Shown in pieces: positions 2,485 to 52,506 of a stretch of 52,506 bases of DNA. Numbering within the stretch: position 1 is the first letter of the stretch; each line of letters begins with the position of its first letter. The stretch lies in IMG/VR virus record IMGVR_UViG_2534681604_000014, positions 1 to 52,506 of that record; one strand, written 5' to 3'. The DNA comes from a virus. Taxonomy: Duplodnaviria; Heunggongvirae; Uroviricota; Caudoviricetes. Below the pieces are notes generated by a model. The model was not told where the DNA came from and made no database searches. It was given only the letters and a program-made list of their open reading frames with translations. The translations under genes and the position numbers were made by a program.

Positions 2485-3678
2485 GTGACCTGGGACGATC
2501 ACAAGAAGAATTTTGCTCGCCTGGCGCGAGATGGTGGTTACACCATCGCACAGTATGCCGCCGAGTTTAATCTTAACCCTAATACCGCACGTCGTTATCT
2601 CCGTGCCTTCAAAGAAGACACCAGGACAGCGGACAGCCGCAAGCCAAATAAGCCAGTCAGGAAGCCACTAAAAAGCATGATCATTGATCACTCTAATGAT
2701 CAACATGCAGGTGATCGCATTGCGGCTGAAATAGCGGAAAAACAAAGAGTTAATGCTGTTGTCAGTGCCGCAGTCGAGAACGCTAAGCGCCAAAATAAGC
2801 GCATAAATGATCGTTCTGATGATCATGACGTGATCACCCGCGCCCACCGTACCTTACGTGATCGCCTGGAACGCGACACCCTGGATGATGATGGTGAACG
2901 CTTTGAATTCGAAGCTGGCGATTACCTGATAGATAACGTTGAAGCGCGGAAGGCCGCGCGCGCTATGTTGCGTCGGTCCGGGGCCGATGTTCTGGAAACC
3001 ACTCTTCTGGAAAAGTCTCTTTCTCATCTCCTTATGCTGGAGAACGCCAGGGATACGTGTATTCGCCTGGTGCAGGAAATGCGCGATCAGCAAAAAGACG
3101 ATGATGAAGGTACTCCGCCTGAATACCGTATCGCGAGCATGCTAAACAGCTGTTCCGCGCAGATAAGCAGCCTGATCAACACCATTTACAGCATCCGGAA
3201 TAACTATCGAAAAGAAAGCCGGGAGGCGGAAAAGCACGCTTTGTCTATGGGGCAAGCTGGCATTGTTAAGCTGGCATACGAACGAAAGCGTGAAAATAAC
3301 TGGTCAGTGCTGGAAGCAGCTGAATTCATCGAGGCGCATGGCGGGAAAGTGCCGCCCCTGATGCTGGAGCAAATCAAAGCCGATCTGCGTGCTCCTAAGA
3401 CCAATACCGATGATGAGGAAAGGCAAACAGCCGTCGGTGGCCCTTCTCTTGAAGATCTGGACAAAGTTGCGCGAGAACGGGCCGCCAACCGCCGCGCCGA
3501 TGCCGCATTGTGGATTGAGCAGCGTAGGGAAGAAATCGCCGATATCGTTGATACAGGCGGTTATGGAGATGTTGATACTGAAGGTGTATCAAACGACCCA
3601 TGGCTGGAACAAGACCTGGACGAAGACGAGGAGGAAGACGAAGAAGTTACCCGCAAGCTATACGGGGATGATGATTAA
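2485..3678 (+). CDS. pacA: terminase small subunit PacA
   Basis: 397-aa ORF, GTG start; sequence recognised as P1 PacA; contains the pac site. Confidence 0.95.
2678..2836 (+). other. pac packaging site (4 + 3 TGATCA/G hexamers, Dam GATC sites)
   Basis: Hexamers at 2678, 2685, 2697, 2712 and at 2808, 2820, 2831 flank an AT-rich centre inside pacA; this is the P1 pac architecture. Confidence 0.9.
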
Positions 3679-5162
3679 TGGCCAGAAGTTGCGTAACGGA
3701 CCCACGTTGGCGCGAGCTGGTGGCGCTATATCGTTATGACTGGATTGCGGCCGCTGATGTTTTGTTCGGCAAAACACCTACCTGGCAGCAGGATCTGATT
3801 ATTGAGTCTGTGCAGGAACAGGGTAGCAAGACATCTGTTTCGTCTGGTCACGGTACCGGGAAATCAGACATGACTTCTATCATGATCATGTTGTTCATAA
3901 TCATGTATCCCGGTGCCCGCGCCATTATCGTTGCGAACAAAATTCAGCAGGTAATGACCGGTATTTTCAAGTACATCAAGATAAACTGGGCTACTGCCAC
4001 CAGCCGTTTTCCATGGCTTGCTGATTATTTTGTTCTGACAGAAACCGCTTTCTATGAGGTTACTGGTAAAGGGGTATGGACAGTTGTACCGAAGGGCTTT
4101 CGTCTGGGAAGTGAAGAAGCTCTCGCAGGTGAACACGCAGATCATCTTCTGTATATTATCGATGAAGCCTCCGGTGTCAGTGATAGAGCTTTCGGTATCA
4201 TCACCGGTGCTCTTACCGGACAGGATAACCGCATCTTATTGCTGTCACAGCCTACACGCCCAAGCGGCTATTTCTACGATACTCACCATAAACTGGCCAA
4301 GCGTCCTGGTAACCCTGATGGCGTTTATACGGCGATCACGCTTAACAGTGAGGAATCACCGCTGGTAACGCCAGCATTTATCAAAATGAAGCTGGCGGAG
4401 TACGGCGGGCGTGATAACCCTATGTACATGATTAAGGTACGCGGCCTATTCCCTAAATCACAGGATGGCTTCCTTCTTGGACGTGATGAGGTTGAACGCG
4501 CAACGCGGCGGAAAGTCAAGATTGCCAAAGGATGGGGCTGGCTTGCATGTGTGGACGTTGCTGGTGGTACGGGACGGGATAAGTCCGTTATCAATATCAT
4601 GATGGTGTCCGGCCAGCGAAATAAACGCCGTGTAATCAACTATCGAATACTGGAATACACAGACGTTACAGAAACGCAGCTTGCCGCCAAAATTTTCGCA
4701 GAATGTAATCCTGAGCGATTCCCAAATATCACCATAGCGATAGACGGCGATGGCCTGGGTAAAGCAACGGCGGATCTGATGTACGAGTATTATGGTATTA
4801 CCGTACAGCGTATACGCTGGGGTAAAAAGATGCATAGCCGTGAAGATAAGAGCCTGTACTTTGATAAACGTGCTTATGCCAACGTTCAAGCCGCAGAGGC
4901 CGTAAAATCTGGTCGTATGAGACTGGATAAGGGTAATGAAACTATTGAGGAAGCGTCGAAAATTCCTGTAGGGATTAACTCCGCAGGTCAATGGAAGGTG
5001 ATGAGTAAGGAGGATATGAAGAAAAAACTCAACCTGCACTCACCAGACCATTGGGATACATATTGTTTCGCTATGCTGGCGGATTATGTTCCCCAGGATG
5101 AAGTGCTTAGCGTCGAAGACGAAGCGCAGGTTGATGAAGCTCTGGCATGGCTTAATGAATGA
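3678..5162 (+). CDS. pacB: terminase large subunit PacB
   Basis: 494-aa ORF, start overlaps the pacA stop (TAATG); P-loop-like GHGTGKS. Confidence 0.95.
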
Positions 5163-5165
5163 ATA

Positions 5166-5182
5166 TTTGCTCTAATAAATTG
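5166..5182 (+). promoter_or_regulatory. C1 operator-like 17-mer
   Basis: TTTGCTCTAATAAATTG, 15 of 17 to consensus, immediately after the pacB stop. Confidence 0.6.
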
Positions 5183-5313
5183 TGTTTTTTAGCTACCGAT
5201 GTTACATTGAACCTGACCTCTTGCGCCTTGAGGCATTTTCGGTTTATGCTTATCAGGCACCTCATTAAAACGGGTGCCGGGATTGGAACCCCGGATAATG
5301 CAAAAGGCGACAC

Positions 5314-5337
5314 AGACGCCAAAAGCGTCTTTTTTTG
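5314..5337 (+). terminator. intrinsic terminator-like hairpin
   Basis: agacgc-caaaa-gcgtct followed by TTTTTTT. Confidence 0.6.
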
Positions 5338-5521
5338 TGTCATGCCATCGCACAGCCATACGTAGCACATAGCTCCGAGATCAATGGTAGTGCTGGCTGG
5401 GCTGCCGAAAGGCAGGCCGGTTCCCTTTTGCGCCGGTAGTTCCAACCCAGTCAGTGCTACCGCCATTGAGATTGGAACCTCACGCGGTAGCTCCTTAAGT
5501 TAGCAAAAGGAGGCTGCCATT

Positions 5522-5743
5522 ATGGCTACTATCCCTACCCCAACTCACCCTGAATTTATCTGGCGCTTTTACTCCTGCCAGAAACGTCACTATCACTTCG
5601 TTATCGCAACAACAGAAGATGAGGCCCGCTCTCAGCTTCCTGACGCCCCATGTATTTTCTCTGCCCGTTTTTCCACTGATTCACGCAATTCTCTCAGTTA
5701 CTGGTGTCTCCCTGTTAACGCTTCTGCTCAGGAGGGAGTATGA
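5522..5743 (+). CDS. small protein, icd-like (translationally coupled to antirepressor)
   Basis: 73-aa ORF; strong SD AAAGGAGG 8 nt upstream; 4-nt ATGA overlap with the next ORF; matches the P1 icd-ant layout. Confidence 0.5.
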   Translation: MATIPTPTHPEFIWRFYSCQKRHYHFVIATTEDEARSQLPDAPCIFSARFSTDSRNSLSYWCLPVNASAQEGV

Positions 5744-6855
5744 GAACGTCATTAGTCACCCGTGAAGAAATGATTGAGGCAATTGAACAGCACACAGCCT
5801 GTATCAGTACCAGGGATATACCGGGCGTTATTGCCAACTACTTCATGATCACCAAACAACTTTACCGGAGAAAGGACAAGAACGCGGTTCACCGCATTCT
5901 GCTAACCGATATCCGTGAATACCTGCTCGAACAGGGTCATCTGAATTACGCAACCGTCGCAGCCGAAGCACGCAAGGAGGCACACAGAATGAAAGCAACT
6001 AACGTTAAATCAGAAAAAATTCATGCAACTTCAGTTCAGGAATCAGAGCTGGTGGTTGTTCAGAATCAGTCTGATGAAATTCCCGTTCTGGAATGGCTGG
6101 GAGTGCGTGTAGTGACAACCAAGATCCTTGCTAAGGGGTATGGGACCGATGCGGATAACATCAAGAAGAACTTTTCCCGTAATGCCGAACGTTTTTGTGA
6201 AGGCAAGCATTTCTATAAAGTTATTGGAGATGATTTGAACAATTTGCGGGTGACTTTAAGTAACTCACAAAATCCCATCTCTCCTAAAGCCCGTTCACTC
6301 ATCCTCTGGACAGAACGCGGCGCTGCCCGTCACGCTAAAATGCTCGAAACCGATCAGGCATGGGCATTCTTTGAAAAACTGGAAGACAGCTACTTCCGGC
6401 AAAAAGAACAGCAACCGGTTGCAATCCCCCAAACATTACCAGAAGCCCTACGCCTGGCTGCCGAACTGGCTGAACAAAAGCAGCTTCTGGAACAGAAAGC
6501 CCACCAGCTAAATCAGCAGCTGGTAGCCGCCGCTCCTAAGGTCGATTTTGCCGACCGGGTATCAGTAGCTAAAGGGATCCTGATTGGGAATTTTGCAAAG
6601 GTTGTTGGACTTAAGCAAAACGCGCTGTTTGCCTGGTTACGGGAGAACGGCATCCTGATAGCGTCCGGCGGACGTAAAAATGTGCCATTCCAGCAGTACA
6701 TCAACGCCGGGTATTTCACTGTGAAAGAAGTGGTGCTAGATGATGAAGATGGCTACCAGATACGGCTGACGCCTCAATTAACGGGGAAAGGCCAGCAGTG
6801 GTTGACGCGTAAGCTGCTCGATGCTGGCTTGTTAAAACCGGTGGCGGCTGAATAA
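5740..6855 (+). CDS. antirepressor (AntA/ORF6N-like N-domain, KilAC-like C-domain), Ant1/Ant2-like
   Basis: 371 aa (about 42 kDa); internal in-frame ATG at 5989 with SD AAGGAGG gives 288 aa (about 32 kDa); C-terminal region looks like a KilAC/ANT domain. Confidence 0.65.
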   Translation: MRTSLVTREEMIEAIEQHTACISTRDIPGVIANYFMITKQLYRRKDKNAVHRILLTDIREYLLEQGHLNYATVAAEARKEAHRMKATNVKSEKIHATSVQESELVVVQNQSDEIPVLEWLGVRVVTTKILAKGYGTDADNIKKNFSRNAERFCEGKHFYKVIGDDLNNLRVTLSNSQNPISPKARSLILWTERGAARHAKMLETDQAWAFFEKLEDSYFRQKEQQPVAIPQTLPEALRLAAELAEQKQLLEQKAHQLNQQLVAAAPKVDFADRVSVAKGILIGNFAKVVGLKQNALFAWLRENGILIASGGRKNVPFQQYINAGYFTVKEVVLDDEDGYQIRLTPQLTGKGQQWLTRKLLDAGLLKPVAAE

Positions 6856-6887
6856 TGGAAGAATGCCCGGTTGATGCCGGGCATAAT

Positions 6888-7739
6888 TTATTGCGCGCTT
6901 TCGGGGTTGTCGTTTACTGGCTGCCCCTTCTTAGTTTTACGGCTGCGCGTAACTGATGCGGCTGACTTAACCTTTTTCTCTTCGCGAGTGATGGCAATTT
7001 GTTTTTTTACATTTTCAATATCTGCCAGGCGATATATTTTTGCCTGCGGCCAGCGGTCGCAGATGATCGGTTCTATGGAGTCATAAAGGCTAAATTTTGC
7101 TTTCTCGAATTCACCGTTGATGATGATTCCATCACGGAGAGTTTCATCGCAGATAAACACGCCACACAGCGGCACATGGTAACTAACTGATTTACCGTTA
7201 TTGTAGTTAGGACTACTGGAGATGTAGTGAACGCGCAGCATTGTTTCGCTAAAGCCGTGTACGCGCATACGGAATTTTTCATCCTCCGGGTACTGCTTCA
7301 TTAGCTCTTTTGTTGCTTCCAGGTTCTCTATGTATTTCGCACTGTGCTCATTGAACCCCGCGCTTTTTTGGATGCGAATGTCCTTATCAATCAGATGAAT
7401 AATGCGGCCAGCGGTCATGTTGACGCTGTTTACAGCTTCTGTCTGATAGGTCGTAACCTTACGCACACCGCGAAGGATGTTAGGCACAGGATATAAAATA
7501 GTCTTTGGGATATTGAGGTCTGGGTACTGTTCCAGTTCCCGCGCCATTAAAGTCCATTTATCAATTTCAGCCTGAATGCTGTCCGTTTCTTTGAACGGCA
7601 GAACGACAACCGGGCGTACAGGACGACCGTCGCTGGCGGCATCAACGTGTTGGGCGCGTGCAACAGCTTTTTTTAGAAAGAGATCCCTGAAGCTGACGAA
7701 CTCCTGGTACAGTTGTTCGCCGTAGACATAATTTATCAT
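6888..7739 (-). CDS. c1: C1 repressor of lysis
   Basis: 283-aa ORF recognised as P1 C1 (MINYVYGEQLYQEF...); strong SD GGAGGAGG upstream. Confidence 0.95.
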   Translation of the reverse strand: MINYVYGEQLYQEFVSFRDLFLKKAVARAQHVDAASDGRPVRPVVVLPFKETDSIQAEIDKWTLMARELEQYPDLNIPKTILYPVPNILRGVRKVTTYQTEAVNSVNMTAGRIIHLIDKDIRIQKSAGFNEHSAKYIENLEATKELMKQYPEDEKFRMRVHGFSETMLRVHYISSSPNYNNGKSVSYHVPLCGVFICDETLRDGIIINGEFEKAKFSLYDSIEPIICDRWPQAKIYRLADIENVKKQIAITREEKKVKSAASVTRSRKTKKGQPVNDNPESAQ

Positions 7740-7833: not shown

Positions 7834-7850
7834 AGATTTATTAGTGCATT
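7834..7850 (-). promoter_or_regulatory. weak C1 operator-like site between c1 and coi
   Basis: AGATTTATTAGTGCATT, 14 of 17 to the reverse-complement consensus. Confidence 0.3.
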
Positions 7851-8059
7851 TATTGTGAGTCTAACTGGTTAGTTGCCATGAGATATTCGATTGTGTCAGT
7901 GAGATCATCCAGGTCGTCTGGGGTGATGCGGTACTCCTGATTGGATATCTTTGAGTAGTGTTCAGCAATGGCGCGAGCAGCGTCGGTTTCGGCGGGGTCT
8001 ACAGATAAAGCGTTAGAGCAATGTCTAACATCGTCGATGGTTGGTGGAATGAAAGCCAT
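7850..8059 (-). CDS. coi: Coi (C1 inactivator)
   Basis: 69-aa ORF directly upstream of c1 on the same strand, as in P1 ImmC. Confidence 0.8.
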   Translation of the reverse strand: MAFIPPTIDDVRHCSNALSVDPAETDAARAIAEHYSKISNQEYRITPDDLDDLTDTIEYLMATNQLDSQ

Positions 8060-8904: not shown

Positions 8905-9300
8905 ATGTTTAATGGCCTGACAGATGCCAAGGTAAACGCCTTACTGAACGACGCAAAACAAAAAGCTGCTAACCCTGGAACGAATGAAAATGAACGTGCT
9001 ATGGCTGTTGCAATTTGGGAGTTAGCAGAAGAAGTAAAGCGAAACCGCTTACTATACACTCGGGTTTACCAGCAATTTGATGGTGCGAGCTGGATAGATA
9101 TCGAAGAGGCTGAATATGCAACATGCAAAAAAGAAAAAAAGATTGTTCGGATTTTGCATAAAGCAGCAACCCCAATCACTGTAGAAATCCCCGATCACAG
9201 ATATTTCGAGAACGATGATCTACCAGGGGATGTGATTCGAATTATTGATGAGATACTTCATGAACAAGGCTTAACTGTTAAAATTACGCATAATAAATGA
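8905..9300 (+). CDS. hypothetical protein, overlaps cre start
   Basis: 131-aa ORF; 4-nt ATGA overlap with cre; no recognisable motif. Confidence 0.45.
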   Translation: MFNGLTDAKVNALLNDAKQKAANPGTNENERAMAVAIWELAEEVKRNRLLYTRVYQQFDGASWIDIEEAEYATCKKEKKIVRILHKAATPITVEIPDHRYFENDDLPGDVIRIIDEILHEQGLTVKITHNK

Positions 9301-10328
9301 CTAATTCGTTAACCGTTCACCAAAATTTGCCTGCATTGCCGGTCGATGCAACGAGTGATGAGGTTCGCAAGAACCTGATGGATATGTTCAGGGATCGCCA
9401 GGCGTTTTCTGAGCATACCTGGAAAATGCTTCTGTCCGTTTGCCGGTCATGGGCGGCATGGTGCAAGTTGAATAACCGGAAATGGTTTCCGGCAGAACCT
9501 GAAGATGTTCGCGATTATCTTCTATATCTTCAGGCGCGCGGTCTGGCAGTAAAAACTATCCAGCAACATTTGGGCCAGCTAAACATGCTTCATCGTCGGT
9601 CCGGGCTGCCACGACCAAGTGACAGCAATGCTGTTTCACTGGTCATGCGACGGATCCGAAAAGAAAACGTTGATGCCGGTGAACGTGCAAAACAGGCACT
9701 GGCGTTCGAACGCACTGATTTCGACCAGGTTCGTTCACTCATGGAAAATAGCGATCGCTGCCAGGATATACGTAATCTGGCATTTCTGGGGATTGCTTAT
9801 AACACCCTGTTACGTATAGCCGAAATTGCCAGGATCAGGGTTAAAGATATCTCACGTACAGACGGTGGGAGAATGTTAATCCATATTGGCAGAACGAAAA
9901 CGCTGGTTAGTACCGCGGGTGTTGAGAAGGCACTTAGCCTGGGGGTAACTAAACTGGTCGAGCGATGGATTTCTGTCTCTGGTGTGGCTGATGATCCGAA
10001 TAACTACTTGTTTTGCCGTGTCAGAAAAAATGGCGTAGCTGCGCCATCTGACACCAGCCAGCTATCAACTCGCGCCCTGGAAGGGATTTTTGAAGCAACT
10101 CATCGATTGATTTACGGCGCTAAGGATGACTCTGGTCAGAGATACCAGGCCTGGTCTGGACACAGTGCCCGTGTCGGAGCCGCGCGAGATATGGCCCGCG
10201 CCGGAGTTTCAATACCGGAGATCATGCAAGCTGGTGGCTGGACCAACGTAAATATTGTCATGAACTATATCCGTAACCTGGATAGTGAAACAGGGGCAAT
10301 GGTGCGCCTGCTGGAAGATGGCGATTAG
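9297..10328 (+). CDS. cre: Cre tyrosine recombinase
   Basis: 343 aa, near-identical to P1 Cre from residue 6 onward; N-terminus is MTNSL rather than MSNLL. Confidence 0.97.
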   Translation: MTNSLTVHQNLPALPVDATSDEVRKNLMDMFRDRQAFSEHTWKMLLSVCRSWAAWCKLNNRKWFPAEPEDVRDYLLYLQARGLAVKTIQQHLGQLNMLHRRSGLPRPSDSNAVSLVMRRIRKENVDAGERAKQALAFERTDFDQVRSLMENSDRCQDIRNLAFLGIAYNTLLRIAEIARIRVKDISRTDGGRMLIHIGRTKTLVSTAGVEKALSLGVTKLVERWISVSGVADDPNNYLFCRVRKNGVAAPSDTSQLSTRALEGIFEATHRLIYGAKDDSGQRYQAWSGHSARVGAARDMARAGVSIPEIMQAGGWTNVNIVMNYIRNLDSETGAMVRLLEDGD

Positions 10329-10937: not shown

Positions 10938-11498
10938 ATGAAAACAATCGAACAAAAAATTGAACAGTGCCGCAAGTGGCAGAAGGCAGCCAGAGAACGA
11001 GCGATCGCTCGGCAACGGGAGAAGTTGGCTGATCCGGTCTGGCGAGAATCTCAATATCAGAAAATGCGGGATACTCTCGACCGCCGTATCTCTAAACAGA
11101 AAGAGCGCCCACCAGCCAGCAAAACGCGGAAAAGCGCGGTAAAAATAAAATCTCGTGGCTTGAAGGGGAGAACACCAACGGCGGAGGAACGGCGCATCGC
11201 CAATGCTCTTGGCGCTCTCCCCTGCATTGCCTGCTATATGCATGGAGTAATATCTAATGAGGTGTCTCTGCACCATATCGCCGGTCGTACCGCGCCGGGT
11301 TGTCATAAAAAGCAATTGCCACTTTGTAGATGGCACCACCAGCATGCAGCTCCGGCTGAAGTAAGAGCAAAATACCCCTGGCTGGTCCCTGTTCATGCCG
11401 ATGGTGTGGTTGGAGGCAAGAAAGAATTCACCCTGCTGAACAAGTCAGAGATGGAGTTGCTGGTTGACGCCTATGAGATGGCAAACATCATGCACTAA
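10938..11498 (+). CDS. ref: Ref recombination enhancement function (HNH endonuclease)
   Basis: 186 aa from the internal ATG (MKTIEQKIEQ...), recognised as P1 Ref; the 10833 start in the ORF track is rejected. Confidence 0.85.
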   Translation: MKTIEQKIEQCRKWQKAARERAIARQREKLADPVWRESQYQKMRDTLDRRISKQKERPPASKTRKSAVKIKSRGLKGRTPTAEERRIANALGALPCIACYMHGVISNEVSLHHIAGRTAPGCHKKQLPLCRWHHQHAAPAEVRAKYPWLVPVHADGVVGGKKEFTLLNKSEMELLVDAYEMANIMH

Positions 11499-11687
11499 TA
11501 AATATATTATTTTTAATCTTAAATGATTGACAACTGACAAGTGACTTCAGTCAGAATCATCACACGCCCGGTACGGATGGATCCCTTTTCAAATATTCCA
11601 TGGACGGCACAGTCTGAGTACCGGGCGCTACCTTCAGTTGTATTGCTAAACCGCCGCGGGTGGCTTTTCTTTTTTGTAGGGGGCGCT

Positions 11688-12329
11688 ATGGATAAGAAAA
11701 TATGCGTTGTTTCGATGAGCGTCGGCAAACCGGCGTCAATGGCTGCTGCATGGATCAACAACGAGCTGATAATGGCTGAGCGGACCAGCTACCCTGAACG
11801 CCGCCGCGACATGGAACTCCAGCTGCTGCGCGAATTGCGAGAAAAAGAGGAAAAGGGTTTTATCGTGCTGGTGGAAGAGGAAAACAGCTTTATTACTGGT
11901 CGAGTTGGCCAGCGTGTAAGGTTGCGCGATCCCTTCATGAACGGCAGGCCGGTACTGATTGAAGCAATGCAGATTTACAAGGAGCTGGAACGCCAGAAAG
12001 CGATCAAGTTACCGCGCAAGGAATCCGGCAAATACATCCTCCACCAAAGCATCTTCGATTCCGAACACGATAAAAAAGGCGATGAATTTTTCAACATCAA
12101 CTGGAGTGAAATAACGACAGAGTATGTACTGACGTTACTATGTTGCTTTGCGACGGAATACAACAACGTTGCCAGCGCCGACTACATCAGGGCAATGGCT
12201 GGAGAAGTTGAGGCACGCCAGGAACCATCGTTACTAAGCCCTCTCATTAACATAATTCGGGGCACACAGAAACTTGCAGAAAAAAGAGTTCCTCATGGAA
12301 TCTTAACTGGAGAGGGGAACTATTTTTAA
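11688..12329 (+). CDS. mat: Mat-like protein
   Basis: 213 aa from ATG 11688 (MDKKICV...); lies between ref and res as P1 mat does. Confidence 0.5.
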   Translation: MDKKICVVSMSVGKPASMAAAWINNELIMAERTSYPERRRDMELQLLRELREKEEKGFIVLVEEENSFITGRVGQRVRLRDPFMNGRPVLIEAMQIYKELERQKAIKLPRKESGKYILHQSIFDSEHDKKGDEFFNINWSEITTEYVLTLLCCFATEYNNVASADYIRAMAGEVEARQEPSLLSPLINIIRGTQKLAEKRVPHGILTGEGNYF

Positions 12330-12370
12330 CGGCCTAAACGCCACTTCTTTCAGGTCGTGTAGGATGTCAA

Positions 12371-17421: not shown

Positions 17422-17670
17422 TTAATCCGCATTGAGAAGCAATGCATTATCTATGATGATCTGCTCCCATTCTTCGAATGCCCGATCGCGGACCCCCTGG
17501 GGAACACTGTTTGTTTTGAAATCAACGACTGTCCGCCATTTCCCGTCCGGACGGTACATGCGCAGAGCTTTACTGCCCCCTTCCCTTCGCACCTCAACGT
17601 TATGCTTGTCAGCAAACTCTTGTAATGCTCGTAGCGTCCCATGCTTTACTGTGTAGTATCGCTTTTTCAA
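17422..17670 (-). CDS. lxc: Lxc/Bof C1 co-repressor
   Basis: 82-aa ORF (MKKRYYTVKHG...) upstream of ulx-darB as in P1. Confidence 0.65.
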   Translation of the reverse strand: MKKRYYTVKHGTLRALQEFADKHNVEVRREGGSKALRMYRPDGKWRTVVDFKTNSVPQGVRDRAFEEWEQIIIDNALLLNAD

Positions 17671-18107
17671 GTTTTCTCTCCAGCCTGTGCCAAGGCTTCA
17701 ACTTCCAAATCGTAAGACTCAAACTCATAGTCTTGGTCGTCAACTTCTTCAGGCACTGGCAGTAAATGCCAGGCTGAGTATATCTGACCATTATCAAAAC
17801 GCTCCTGGCTGTAGAGCGTCGCGGCTATGAGTGTTAGCGCCGGGCGGTCATAACGGTAAATTTTGCGAACGTCACGGTCAACGAGACGACCGAAATTACC
17901 ATAACCGCGCTCCAGTAATAATTTTTTAATTTCCGGCCAGTATGGGCCATAGCTGCGGTACAGGCGGGGATTTTTAAGCAATCGCCCGCGTAGCCCTGAC
18001 AGGAAGAAATCAACGTATTCGTCTTCTGTCTTTCCTAACAACGCCGTACGCAGTACCGCCTCAAGATATGTTTTATTCGGTTTTATTGTATCAGATAGTG
18101 TGGACAT
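17667..18107 (-). CDS. ulx: Ulx
   Basis: 146-aa ORF between darB and lxc; 4-nt overlap with lxc. Confidence 0.6.
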   Translation of the reverse strand: MSTLSDTIKPNKTYLEAVLRTALLGKTEDEYVDFFLSGLRGRLLKNPRLYRSYGPYWPEIKKLLLERGYGNFGRLVDRDVRKIYRYDRPALTLIAATLYSQERFDNGQIYSAWHLLPVPEEVDDQDYEFESYDLEVEALAQAGEKT

Positions 18108-18140
18108 ATTATGCGACGCCCGGCGAACCGGGCGCTCCTG

Positions 18141-21100
18141 TTATGCGTATTGTTGGATGACGGCCAGAACGTCCGCCACGTTGTGTTTTGTCTCGATAAT
18201 CCACCAGTTACCCGGGAAATCGCTGTTCTTCGCCTTCGCTGGCAGCCAGCGAGCGCCGAATTTCGCCTTGATTGCGTCTTTCGCACGGAAAAGAATGCCT
18301 TTCATGCCGGACGCCTCCTGAAGCCCAAATACCTCGCCAGCGGCGAATTTTGGTGCGTACATCATCTTCAGGTCGGCGGTGGATACGCGATAATTCAGCC
18401 CAAGAGACTGAGCTATGCTGGTGGCATCACCCTGTATTGATGATAACTCTTCTTGTTTCTCGTTTCTGGCGGCAATTTCTTCCTCCGTGATGTTGCCTAG
18501 GGCCAGGTTTATCCGATCAGCGTCGGCCTGTTTCTCTTCATCGGTGCGTCCGGCAAGAACCGTGTTAATTCTCTGCAATATCTCCACATGATTCTTGCGC
18601 ATGCTGAGCAATTCCGGCGTAACCTCGTTAAGGTCCACCAGCCCAAGGATGGCAAGGTCGGAAAACATTGATACCAGGTTGTAGGTCATGCGATAGCTGA
18701 GTTGGCCATAGGCTGATGGCAACTGCACCGAATCCATTTTATAGGCATCCATAAATTTAGAGCCGTCGTTTACGACTTCCGCAATTGCAGGTGTGATTTT
18801 CCCTGTGGTGGCGGCCTCCCTGATTGCTGTTACCCACGATTGAGTCAGCGCGGCGACTGCATGATTCAGATTGGCTTTCCGTTCTGCTGCAATGCGCGCG
18901 CTTGCAGCGTCCATTGCCTGCTTGATCTCGTCTTTATTGCTGTAAATGCCAATGGTGCCAAACTGTGCTGTGGTGATCTCAAAGTCTGACGCCCGGAACT
19001 CATTAATACCGAAAATGGCATTGGTGACCTCAAGTTCAGAATCACCGTTACGGGTAGCCCCCTGGCTTGTTTTCTCCGGCATTCTGGCGATCGCATCCGC
19101 TATTTTCTCCTGAATTGCTTCAGGGGATAGCGTATCTCCGTATGACGCGATTACATCGCCATAATTGGAGCCAAACAGTTCAGTCAGGAATACTTCTGCC
19201 AAACGGACCTGGCGGTTATTCCCTTCCGACATCATACCAAGCACCCATTTAGCAATTGACGACTTCAGGGCGCCGTCACGGCGATCCGGATAAACCGCAT
19301 GCTTCAGCGGGTCCGTATAGGTACCAACAAAATCAATGCTGTAGCCTGACTCTGTAGTCTGAACGCCGTATGAGTCAGTGATTTTGATCATGCCGCGCTG
19401 CTGGAAACGGTAGAAATCGTCACAGGAAATGATGTCGTTAATCCCGGCGATGGAGACGCCACCACTGATTTTCTGCATAACAGCATCTTCATCGGGAGTT
19501 ACATCCACCTGTTTATCCAGCGTCTTCACATCCCAGTTACCCGATTTGGTACCTTTGAAGGTAAAGATAATCTCCACGTCTGCGCGCTGGCTGTCGAAGT
19601 CCAGCGACTTAATGCGAACGATATCACCGGCACAATCGTAGTATTGGCCTACACGCCATGAGCGATCGCCGATAACAAGGAACTCATTCGCATGGTTAAC
19701 CAGATCAGGATCAACATCCAGAATGCCTTTATTTATTGCATCCTCCACCAGCGGGCGCAGGCGTTTGATATCCGTCGCGGCCTTCTGAGTACGGTTCAAT
19801 AATTTCTCATAACGGGAGATGGCCTGAGAGATATTAGCCTTGCGCTGAATGGCGCTTTTCAACGACGCGCGATACTGTGCTAACAACGTACGGTCTGTGT
19901 GATGGACGCTACCCCAGCGGGCCTTCCAGTCTGCGTTATCAGCTGCTTTGGCCATTGCCGCCTGTTTGAATTTAGCTACCTCGGCGGTGGTCTTTTCAAG
20001 TTCCGCTTTGCTTCGCTCTAATTCAGCGGTAAGTACCTCCACATCCTCGCCAGCTGCGTGCTGCGCCTTGATGTAGTTCTGAAGGTCGATAGTAGCCTGT
20101 TCTTTCTGGCGAGCGCGTTGCGCGGCTTTCGCCTTATCCATTTGAACCTGCATCATTGCCAGACGTTCGCCGTCATCCTTCGCGGTATACATCTGCATTT
20201 CGATCATGTCATTGGCGTCGGCGTTCTCCATTTCTGACTTATCTGAACGGAGGATATCGGAGATCCAGCCTGCTTTACGCTTCAGCGTCTTCAGTCGGTA
20301 TTCATCGAAAGAACCCTTGCCGCAGTAGTAGTGAACGCGAACGCTTGCACGGTTGGAGCCAACTCGGGCACCGCGACCGTTTCGTTGCGCAATACTGGCT
20401 GGAGTCCATGGCAACGTCAGATGATGGATGTCAGTCGTTCCTCGATGCAGGTTGATACCCACCTCTGCCTTTTTGTTGCAGATGATGATCGGAGTCCGGC
20501 CCTCCTGGAAGTCGGCTGCAATCTTTTCCAGACCGCCCAACGACATTTCATTTTGCTGCGCGATATAGGCGTCATACAGAGCCATTTGCTCGTTGTATTT
20601 CGCTATCTGTGCATCTGTTGGTTCATCCGATAACTCTTTCGGCGGTTTAACCGCTTTCAGTTTCTTACCGGTTTTACCTGCCTCGGCAACCGTCTGAGCA
20701 TTCAGGATCCCCACCTTTGAAGGTTCAAGGTTAAGAGCATTGCAGATAATGCGCTTGAGTTTCTGGTGCTGCGTTTTTTCGTCCGTGAAGATGATTTGCT
20801 TACCTTCCGGGAAAAACTCCTTCAGCGTGGCGATCAGCTTCGCGTATTTGGGTGTAACGGGGTGAGTTACGGTCTGTTCGTCAATGCCAAACCTGGCCAG
20901 GCGCTTATTCACTTCCTGCTCGAACGCTTCCGGAACCTGCAACTGAATAAACTCGCCCTTATCTATCAGGGAGTATTGCGATTGCTGCGTGATTGAATCA
21001 TCACTGTCGTCGTCTTCGCTGGTGGCTTGTTTAGGCAAACTGTCCGCCAGCTGCTGCACCGCATCGGCGTACTCCGGCAGGAAACGATAGGTGATCCGGC

Positions 21101-52175: not shown

Positions 52176-52506
52176 GGTGATGCTGCCAACTTACTGATTT
52201 AGTGTATGATGGTGTTTTTGAGGTGCTCCAGTGGCTTCTGTTTCTATCAGCTGTCCCTCCTGTTCAGCTACTGACGGGGTGGTGCGTAACGGCAAAAGCA
52301 CCGCCGGACATCAGCGCTATCTCTGCTCTCACTGCCGTAAAACATGGCAACTGCAGTTCACTTACACCGCTTCTCAACCCGGTACGCACCAGAAAATCAT
52401 TGATATGGCCATGAATGGCGTTGGATGCCGGGCAACAGCCCGCATTATGGGCGTTGGCCTCAACACGATTTTACGTCACTTAAAAAACTCAGGCCGCAGT
52501 CGGTAA
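52176..52506 (+). mobile_element. IS1 left end (partial, runs off the window)
   Basis: GGTGATGCTGCCAACTTACTGATTTAGTGTATGATGGTG is the IS1 terminal inverted repeat, followed by insA. Confidence 0.95.
52231..52506 (+). CDS. insA: IS1 InsA
   Basis: 91-aa ORF, GTG start, [21 protein letters not shown]...; stop at the window end. Confidence 0.95.

Follow-up and report, generated by a model that had tools for sequence, protein, structure and literature searches.

The window analysed here is a stretch of 52,506 nucleotides (nt), positions 1 to 52,506 of IMG/VR virus record IMGVR_UViG_2534681604_000014 (Caudoviricetes), and its backbone is that of a P1-like (Punavirus) phage-plasmid. A block at 5163-6870, between pacB and the repressor gene c1, carries a C1 operator-like site, a structured leader RNA containing a C4 antisense RNA, and homologues of the P1 genes icd and ant. 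We consider it likely that this block is, in this P1-like lineage, a complete cassette of the immI type that functions in immunity and antirepression. The organisation is evident from the anatomy of the block, its homology to the immI region of P1, its conservation in related genomes, and the covariation of its short RNA recognition sequences. An initial annotation, made from the sequence without database searches, had proposed an immI-type module here, and the C4 RNA with its a and b targets and the homology of the Icd and Ant proteins to those of P1 bear it out.

Organisation of the block

In reference P1 (NC_005856), c1 comes directly after pacB, with 24 nt separating the two stop codons, and immI is found at 48.1-49.7 kb, about 45 kb from the pacB-c1 junction. 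The initial annotation had described this arrangement correctly. In the window, the pacB stop codon (5160-5162) is followed by an insert of 1.7 kb (approximately 5161-6886) that has no counterpart at the pacB-c1 position in P1 and P7. A megablast search of 5100-6950 against phage records matched P1, P7 and SJ46 at both flanks only (7% of the query), and alignment showed that neither P1 nor P7 carries these genes at this position. On the left, the insert joins at the pacB stop codon itself, TGA in the window and TAA in P1; on the right, the junction falls within the hairpin just ahead of the c1 stop, where homology to the P1 pacB-c1 spacer resumes. The operator-like site therefore belongs to the insert.

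Relatives were collected by scanning IMG/VR with the Icd protein, which gave 79 loci, and by a second scan with P1 Icd; loci were paired by contig or isolate genome. In 59 modules a leader of the window type lies directly after pacB, and nearly all of these are then followed by c1.

The C1 operator-like 17-mer that the initial annotation had placed just after the pacB stop is indeed present (Table 1) and aligns with P1 Oc4. At up to 3 mismatches, 7 such sites occur in the window against 0.32 expected. A variant of the operator-like site with 2-3 mismatches is found in all 59 pacB-site modules examined. The six other 17-mers in the window have 1-3 mismatches and start at 1859, 7834 (minus strand), 8298 (minus strand), 8381, 24838 and 28689; several of them coincide with known P1 operator positions around c1, coi and cre. 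The operator overlaps a putative promoter, which by sequence reading and alignment is the positional homologue of the annotated P1 promoter P2c4/P51a. A start from a possible second promoter would fall near 5257, where the Rfam isrK match described below begins. Both promoter candidates are weak.

The region that follows, 5183-5521 (339 nt), contains no coding sequence in the icd/ant frame. The prediction of an untranslated structured leader of about 340 nt thus held, and the fold of 5257-5530 has an energy of -113 kcal/mol (z = -5.1). Rfam identifies two RNAs in it: isrK (RF01394) at 5257-5335, which scores 62.4 bits (gathering threshold 50), and C4 (RF01695) at 5380-5467, which scores 76.7 bits (gathering threshold 45). 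Nothing else in the whole window scored above the gathering score. A consensus fold supports the long stem of the C4 RNA, in which compensatory changes occur. Its two loops, a' and b', are exactly complementary to the targets a2 and b2 downstream, and b2 overlaps the Shine-Dalgarno (SD) sequence of icd. The same two recognition sequences occur upstream, as a1 and b1, within the IsrK-family RNA. The a-spacer-b motif pair occurs exactly three times in the 52.5 kb (a1-b1, the complement of b'-a', and a2-b2); the chance expectation is 0.00, and shuffles yield none. In relatives, RefSeq places a 40-amino-acid (aa) 'ash family protein' coding sequence over C4 (approximately 5384-5503 in the window; 127060-127179 in pTZ20_1P; 9061-9180 in locus L010). 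Here a non-coding RNA has probably been miscalled as a protein.

The 73-aa open reading frame (ORF) downstream has the strong SD and the ATGA overlap onto the 371-aa ORF that had been described for it, the overlap being at 5740-5743. Its product is 79% identical to P1 Icd over 66 aligned residues and scores 50 bits (vs 25) with NCBIfam phage_ICD_like (NF033153). It is intact in 58 of the 59 related modules.

The 371-aa protein is clearly related to the P1 antirepressor. A profile hidden Markov model search, which the initial annotation had suggested, found the Pfam domains KilAC/ANT (PF03374) at aa 259-360 (109.5 bits vs 25.3; 1.4e-31) and ORF6N (PF10543) at aa 117-201 (65.9 bits vs 27.8; 4e-18), and PHROG 63 'anti-repressor Ant' matched at 2.7e-134. 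Identity to P1 Ant1 is 55% overall but is distributed as a mosaic, being 64% in the first 83 aa (the part found only in Ant1), dropping to 21% in the middle and reaching 87% across the C-terminal KilAC region. A Pfam search of the middle region of P1 Ant1 finds no domain, so that in the window protein, which exceeds Ant1 by 24 aa, an ORF6N domain has taken the place of this region. Of the 59 pacB-site modules, 45 have a full-length gene (370-372 aa), and in 6 more it runs off the locus; truncated ant genes are found in a minority of relatives.

Within ant, the in-frame ATG with a perfect AAGGAGG SD, noted at the outset, was confirmed, and would give a product of 288 aa. Its offset of 249 nt from the ant start is identical to that of annotated P1 ant2. 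Both this SD and the ATG are also present in P1, and 53 of the 55 related modules whose locus spans the position have kept them.

All these elements occur in the same order in the immI region of P1 and P7: an operator over a promoter, a1/b1, C4, a2/b2 (b2 covering the ribosome-binding site of icd), icd, and ant1/ant2. The P1 annotation lists Oc4, two promoters, a1, b1, c4, a2, b2, icd (73 aa), ant1 (347 aa) and ant2. P1 immI and the window share the 73-aa length of icd, the ATGA overlap and the position of the in-frame ant2 start (predicted in the window), 249 nt into ant1. They differ in location, with P1 immI lying between sim and kilA. The cassette thus does not match the P1-type sim-kilA/repL map position, although this is a positional and not a functional feature. 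They also differ in the family of the leader: the P1, P7-type and RCS47 canonical leaders match the c4-a1b1 family (RF03163) and not isrK, and the terminator scan that finds a hairpin in the window leader finds no terminator-like site in the P1 leader.

Table 1. Features of the pacB-c1 block and of the adjoining genes (positions in the window)
Feature	Position	Strand	Remarks
C1 operator-like 17-mer TTTGCTCTAATAAATTG	5166-5182	+	15/17 to consensus ATTGCTCTAATAAATTT; positional homologue of P1 Oc4/Op51
Putative sigma-70 promoter	5180-5208	+	-35 TTGTGT, 17 nt, -10 TACATT; overlapped by operator
Possible second promoter	5221-5250	+	TTGCGC, 18 nt, TATGCT; start near 5257
IsrK-family leader RNA	5257-5337	+	Holds a1 and b1; ends in intrinsic terminator-like hairpin
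a1 (TTGGAAC)	5283-5289	+	
b1 (GCAAAAGG)	5300-5307	+	
Terminator-like hairpin of IsrK-type leader	5314-5330	+	Followed by T7 run
C4 antisense RNA	5380-5467	+	Rfam RF01695; consensus fold
C4 loop b' (CCTTTTGC)	5424-5431	+	
C4 loop a' (GTTCCAA)	5439-5445	+	
C4 target a2 (TTGGAAC)	5472-5478	+	Exact reverse complement of a'
C4 target b2 (GCAAAAGG)	5503-5510	+	Exact reverse complement of b'
icd homologue, 73 aa	5522-5743	+	SD AAGGAGG 5507-5513
ant, Ant1-type, 371 aa, 41.9 kDa	5740-6855	+	Ant1-specific N-terminus, ORF6N, KilAC/ANT
Predicted Ant2-type product, 288 aa, 32.3 kDa	5975-6855	+	SD AAGGAGG 5975-5981; in-frame ATG 5989
Terminator-like hairpin between convergent ant and c1	6863-6884	.	By scan: 9 pairs, 6 G-C
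c1 repressor gene	6888-7739	minus	Context, outside the insert; presumed Ant target
coi	7850-8059	minus	
cre	9297-10328		

Covariation of the C4 recognition sequences

The window uses the recognition sequences TTGGAAC/GCAAAAGG, while those of P1 are TTGACAG/GTTAGTGA. In P1, the C4 loop a' (CTGTCAA) pairs with TTGACAG at a1 and a2, and b' (TCACTAAC) pairs with GTTAGTGC and GTTAGTGA at b1 and b2. RCS47 has TTGAGAC/GTCAAAGG at this site, again unlike the window, with matching changes in a1, a2, b1 and b2.

The window-type leaders can be sorted into five recognition classes. Four of them are the possible combinations of two a-alleles with two b-alleles, and the fifth makes use of G-U wobbles. Within each class the three recognition copies agree as pairing partners; they are identical except for one G-U wobble position per helix in the commonest class. 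Leaders of the P1/P7 type vary in a similar way: among 159 IMG/VR loci (L011-L169), a is TTGACAG or TTAGCAG, and with 6 b-alleles there are 11 combinations.

A formal pair count was carried out on 25 distinct related leaders, with 15 pairs, giving 375 cells per test. In the helices between a'/b' and a2/b2 all 375 cells are paired, and the same is true of the helices between a1/b1 and a'/b' (375/375). Compensatory changes on both sides are present in 7 of the 15 C4-target pairs. When the partners are slid by 1-3 columns as a control, only 25-56% of cells pair. Because the leaders are related to one another, a shuffle control overstates the significance; kinship does not affect the slid control, nor the evidence from a and b alleles that have reassorted independently. 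Taken together, this is strong comparative evidence that C4 interacts functionally with its targets as predicted and that the specificity of this interaction is undergoing diversification. One IMG/VR contig (2711768036_000004) codes for Icd and Ant proteins identical to those of the window, with a DNA identity of just 93%. A 25-kb query from the window matched no record at more than about 97%.

The a and b sequences of the window differ not only from those of P1 but also from those in the canonical immI modules of related genomes, so that the cassette would be an immunity specificity of its own. A pacB-site module and a canonical immI co-occur in more than 30 contigs or isolate genomes, and in every one of these the C4 recognition sequences of the two are different. 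RCS47, JL22 and vB_EcoM-673R5 also carry modules at both sites.

We also considered whether the cassette is an immI moved to a new place. Related complete contigs nearly always keep the canonical immI as well; the sequence studied here is cut by an IS1 insertion sequence (IS), and in this genome the cassette may be either an added or a moved immI.

Mechanism and alternative explanations

By homology with P1 immI, we propose the following mechanism. Transcription would start at the operator-overlapped promoter, and perhaps also at a second promoter just upstream of 5257. Many transcripts would end at the terminator of the IsrK-type a1/b1 leader, and those that read through would carry C4, icd and ant. 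The C4 loops a' and b' would then pair with a2 and b2, and since b2 covers the icd ribosome-binding site, icd is proposed to remain untranslated. The ATGA overlap is expected to couple ant to icd (in P1 there is polarity too), so that no antirepressor would be made while cognate C4 is abundant. Where cognate C4 is missing or titrated, Icd and two in-frame Ant products would be made. The trigger could be the entry of the genome into a cell without cognate C4, or an excess of a1/b1 decoy RNA. Ant would then inactivate C1, and lytic genes would be derepressed. We infer promoter use, the processing of C4, the synthesis of Ant1 and Ant2 and the binding of C1 from this homology; that Ant binds C1 is suggested by the sequences of the two proteins.

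Several observations weigh against this picture. A consensus promoter scan of the leader returned no promoter. The middle third of Ant, being an ORF6N domain, has little in common with P1 Ant1. The regulatory sign of a1/b1 is uncertain because the IsrK-type leader of Gifsy-1 is a trans-activator (PMC4825925). Finally, the window ends in an IS1 (52176-52506; the left inverted repeat lies at about 52176 and insA starts at about 52231), just after pmgC, where sim and the canonical immI region of P1 would begin. Because the window is cut there, the cassette may be either the second immI of this genome or its only one.

The initial annotation went further, and placed repressor and antirepressor under operator control in one block. 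This goes beyond the evidence. The ant and c1 genes are convergent, with a terminator-like hairpin in between, and because the canonical immI of P1 is also operator-controlled, adjacency to c1 adds no demonstrated regulatory link.

The best-surviving alternative concerns the leader. In the isrK-orf45-anrP region of Salmonella Gifsy-1, IsrK ends at a Rho-independent terminator and the read-through mRNA is translationally silent; the short IsrK works in trans and activates translation of the coupled short ORF and the antirepressor AnrP more than 100-fold (PMC4825925). AUGA couples the short ORF to the antirepressor, and IsrK is followed downstream by STnc1160, a C4-like RNA that is processed (PMC4825925). 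The window shares with Gifsy-1 the IsrK-family RNA with its Rho-independent terminator and a short ORF coupled to an antirepressor. The terminated a1/b1 RNA (5257-5337) could therefore be a trans-acting anti-C4 or anti-structure activator that switches on translation of icd and ant, which would make the cassette a stress-responsive induction trigger rather than a P1-like immunity region. The assignment of the leader to IsrK and not to c4-a1b1, the clear intrinsic terminator that the same scan does not find in P1, and the perfect pairing and covariation of a1/b1 with a'/b' all fit this idea, and the behaviour of IsrK in Gifsy-1 implies that the a1/b1 RNA may act as a C4 decoy. There are, however, differences. 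In Gifsy-1, orf45 overlaps the C4-like region, while the window has a full C4 gene followed by a separate coupled ORF that is a true Icd homologue, as in P1. No orf45-type ORF overlapping C4 was found, and only the 40-aa 'ash family' call overlaps C4 in relatives. Unlike Gifsy-1, the window also has a P1 C1 operator-like site upstream, which ties the cassette to the P1 repressor circuit, and an Ant1/Ant2 homologue whose presumed target is C1 and not the Gifsy repressor. We therefore regard IsrK-like activation in place of P1-like immunity as rather unlikely, while noting that the two readings overlap.

A second alternative is that Ant mainly targets something other than C1, such as the repressors of co-resident lambdoid prophages, or DNA through its ORF6N domain, and that the module is a mobile accessory outside P1 immunity. 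The exchange of the middle domain for ORF6N would agree with this, as would the annotation of the JL22 homologue as a Roi DNA-binding protein. Related leader and module sequences are moreover found on E. coli chromosomes (287 places) and in Shiga toxin (Stx) phages, and P1-like genomes have modules at four or more sites. Against it, the two parts of Ant that flank the exchanged domain are those most similar to P1 Ant1, the operator-like site upstream is conserved in every one of the 59 modules, and the C1 protein of the window is 99% identical to P1 C1.100 (280 of 283 residues). It appears improbable. The absence of the block from P1 and P7, which makes it dispensable for the phage life cycle, and the truncated ant of some relatives might instead suggest an inert or decaying insertion, a recombination remnant of another prophage without present function, but this has very little to recommend it given the integrity of icd and ant in most modules, the covariation of all three recognition copies with zero broken pairs, and the persistence of the block in about 300 plasmids. 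An immI-type immunity cassette with C1 as the presumed target of Ant thus remains the preferred reading.

Distribution, module sites and significance

The arrangement, which the initial annotation had set against that of reference P1, is not unusual. It is annotated in RCS47, mentioned for pTZ20_1P (PMC6906374), and present in hundreds of plasmids, so that the pacB-c1 cassette is an already recorded, ordinary variant of P1 immunity architecture. pTZ20_1P (MN510447) is 100% identical over the 1851-nt query, though rearranged elsewhere. RCS47 (NC_042128) is 96% identical, with 'ant' annotated between pacB and c1. According to the pTZ20_1P paper, an insertion between pacB and c1 contains ant together with two short ORFs, as is also the case in RCS47 (PMC6906374). 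In RCS47, pTZ20_1P, JL22 and vB_EcoM-673R5 the position and gene content of the module are the same as in the window. Approximately 300 PLSDB plasmids hold at least 80% of the query, and both flanks are covered in 40 of 40 among the plasmid matches listed. Of 5426 complete E. coli genomes, 287 hold at least 80% of the query.

Earlier accounts of the site are brief. RefSeq-derived records name the genes 'Icd-like', 'phage antirepressor Ant' or 'KilAC domain-containing'. At this site the RCS47 record has the ant annotation only, with no C4 RNA, operator or icd identity, and the pTZ20_1P paper has only ant and two short hypothetical ORFs, again with no C4, operator or icd identity (PMC6906374). 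The genes are not mentioned in the JL22 paper (PMC9603915), the SJ46 paper has pacB in its gene inventory only (PMC5241659), and a 2026 preprint on Shiga toxin-producing E. coli does not deal anywhere with pacB, icd or this antirepressor module (PMC13596339). In the literature searched, which did not include the RCS47 and D6 papers, there was no description of the C4/IsrK anatomy of the site, of its orthogonality to the canonical immI, or of the combinatorial a/b repertoire. An extra immI with C4 recognition always unlike that of the co-resident canonical one, and the combinatorial variation of the loops, thus seem to be undescribed.

Modules are also found elsewhere. In phage D6 (locus L170; NC_050154, 70617-79944) a window-type module is flanked by ref and pmgF instead of adjoining c1. 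From the leader through C4 to the start of icd it shares 93% identity with 5256-5584 of the window, while its Ant is different and shorter. D6 carries a second c4-icd region, of the P1 type, at about 20.8 kb, and a second region with an antisense RNA and icd was noted in the D6-like pYU39_89 (PMC6799933). The parts of the module recombine, as is seen from window-type leaders at the canonical site and from P1-type Ant at the pacB site.

Some individual loci may be noted. P1-type-leader modules are present in L073, L077, L082 and L088 between homologues of window 11490-12330 and 17424-18357, and L077 has two P1-type-leader modules in opposite orientation. At one extra module site the res-mod restriction genes are replaced; RD-1 of pSvP1 likewise has a module in place of res-mod (PMC6906374). 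In L123 a c4-icd-ant module with a P1-type leader is inserted at window position ~27750. Tandem modules occur at the pacB site of L018 (3501 and 5067; both modules window-type and of one class) and L167 (2505 and 3501; a window-type module and then a P1-type module). The P1-like plasmid pZ1323CEC0010-3 (NZ_CP148447.1; L007, L008), which agrees with the end of the window at 99.7%, has no immI: c1 abuts pacB, IS1 and a second IS replace sim-c4-icd-ant upstream of kilA-repL, and there is no Rfam C4 match in these two loci.

The surroundings of the cassette in the window are those of P1. The first 10 kb contain phd-doc (1-602), pdc-like ORFs, lpa, pacA (2485-3678) and pacB (3678-5162), followed by the block, c1, coi and cre.

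On the basis of these observations, the annotation of 5163-6870 as an immI-type cassette can be regarded as settled, with C4 and IsrK-type RNAs to replace the small 'ash family protein' ORFs. We tentatively suggest, as an idea that falls somewhat short of an even chance, that P1-like plasmid prophages carry several mutually orthogonal antirepressor cassettes under antisense control, with loops diversified combinatorially, and that the one between pacB and c1 is a second immunity key. If this is true, such a key would widen both the range of relatives that a resident prophage excludes and the range of resident immunities that an incoming phage breaks, and the terminated decoy RNA of the IsrK type might make the cassette inducible in trans. 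The point is incremental and concerns a system already known, rather than a system of a new kind.

P1-like phage-plasmids serve as carriers of resistance genes, and coexistence, exclusion and induction among them depend on immI specificity. With a second, orthogonal immI in approximately one third of sequenced P1-like plasmids, their immunity groups would not be inferable from the canonical immI alone.

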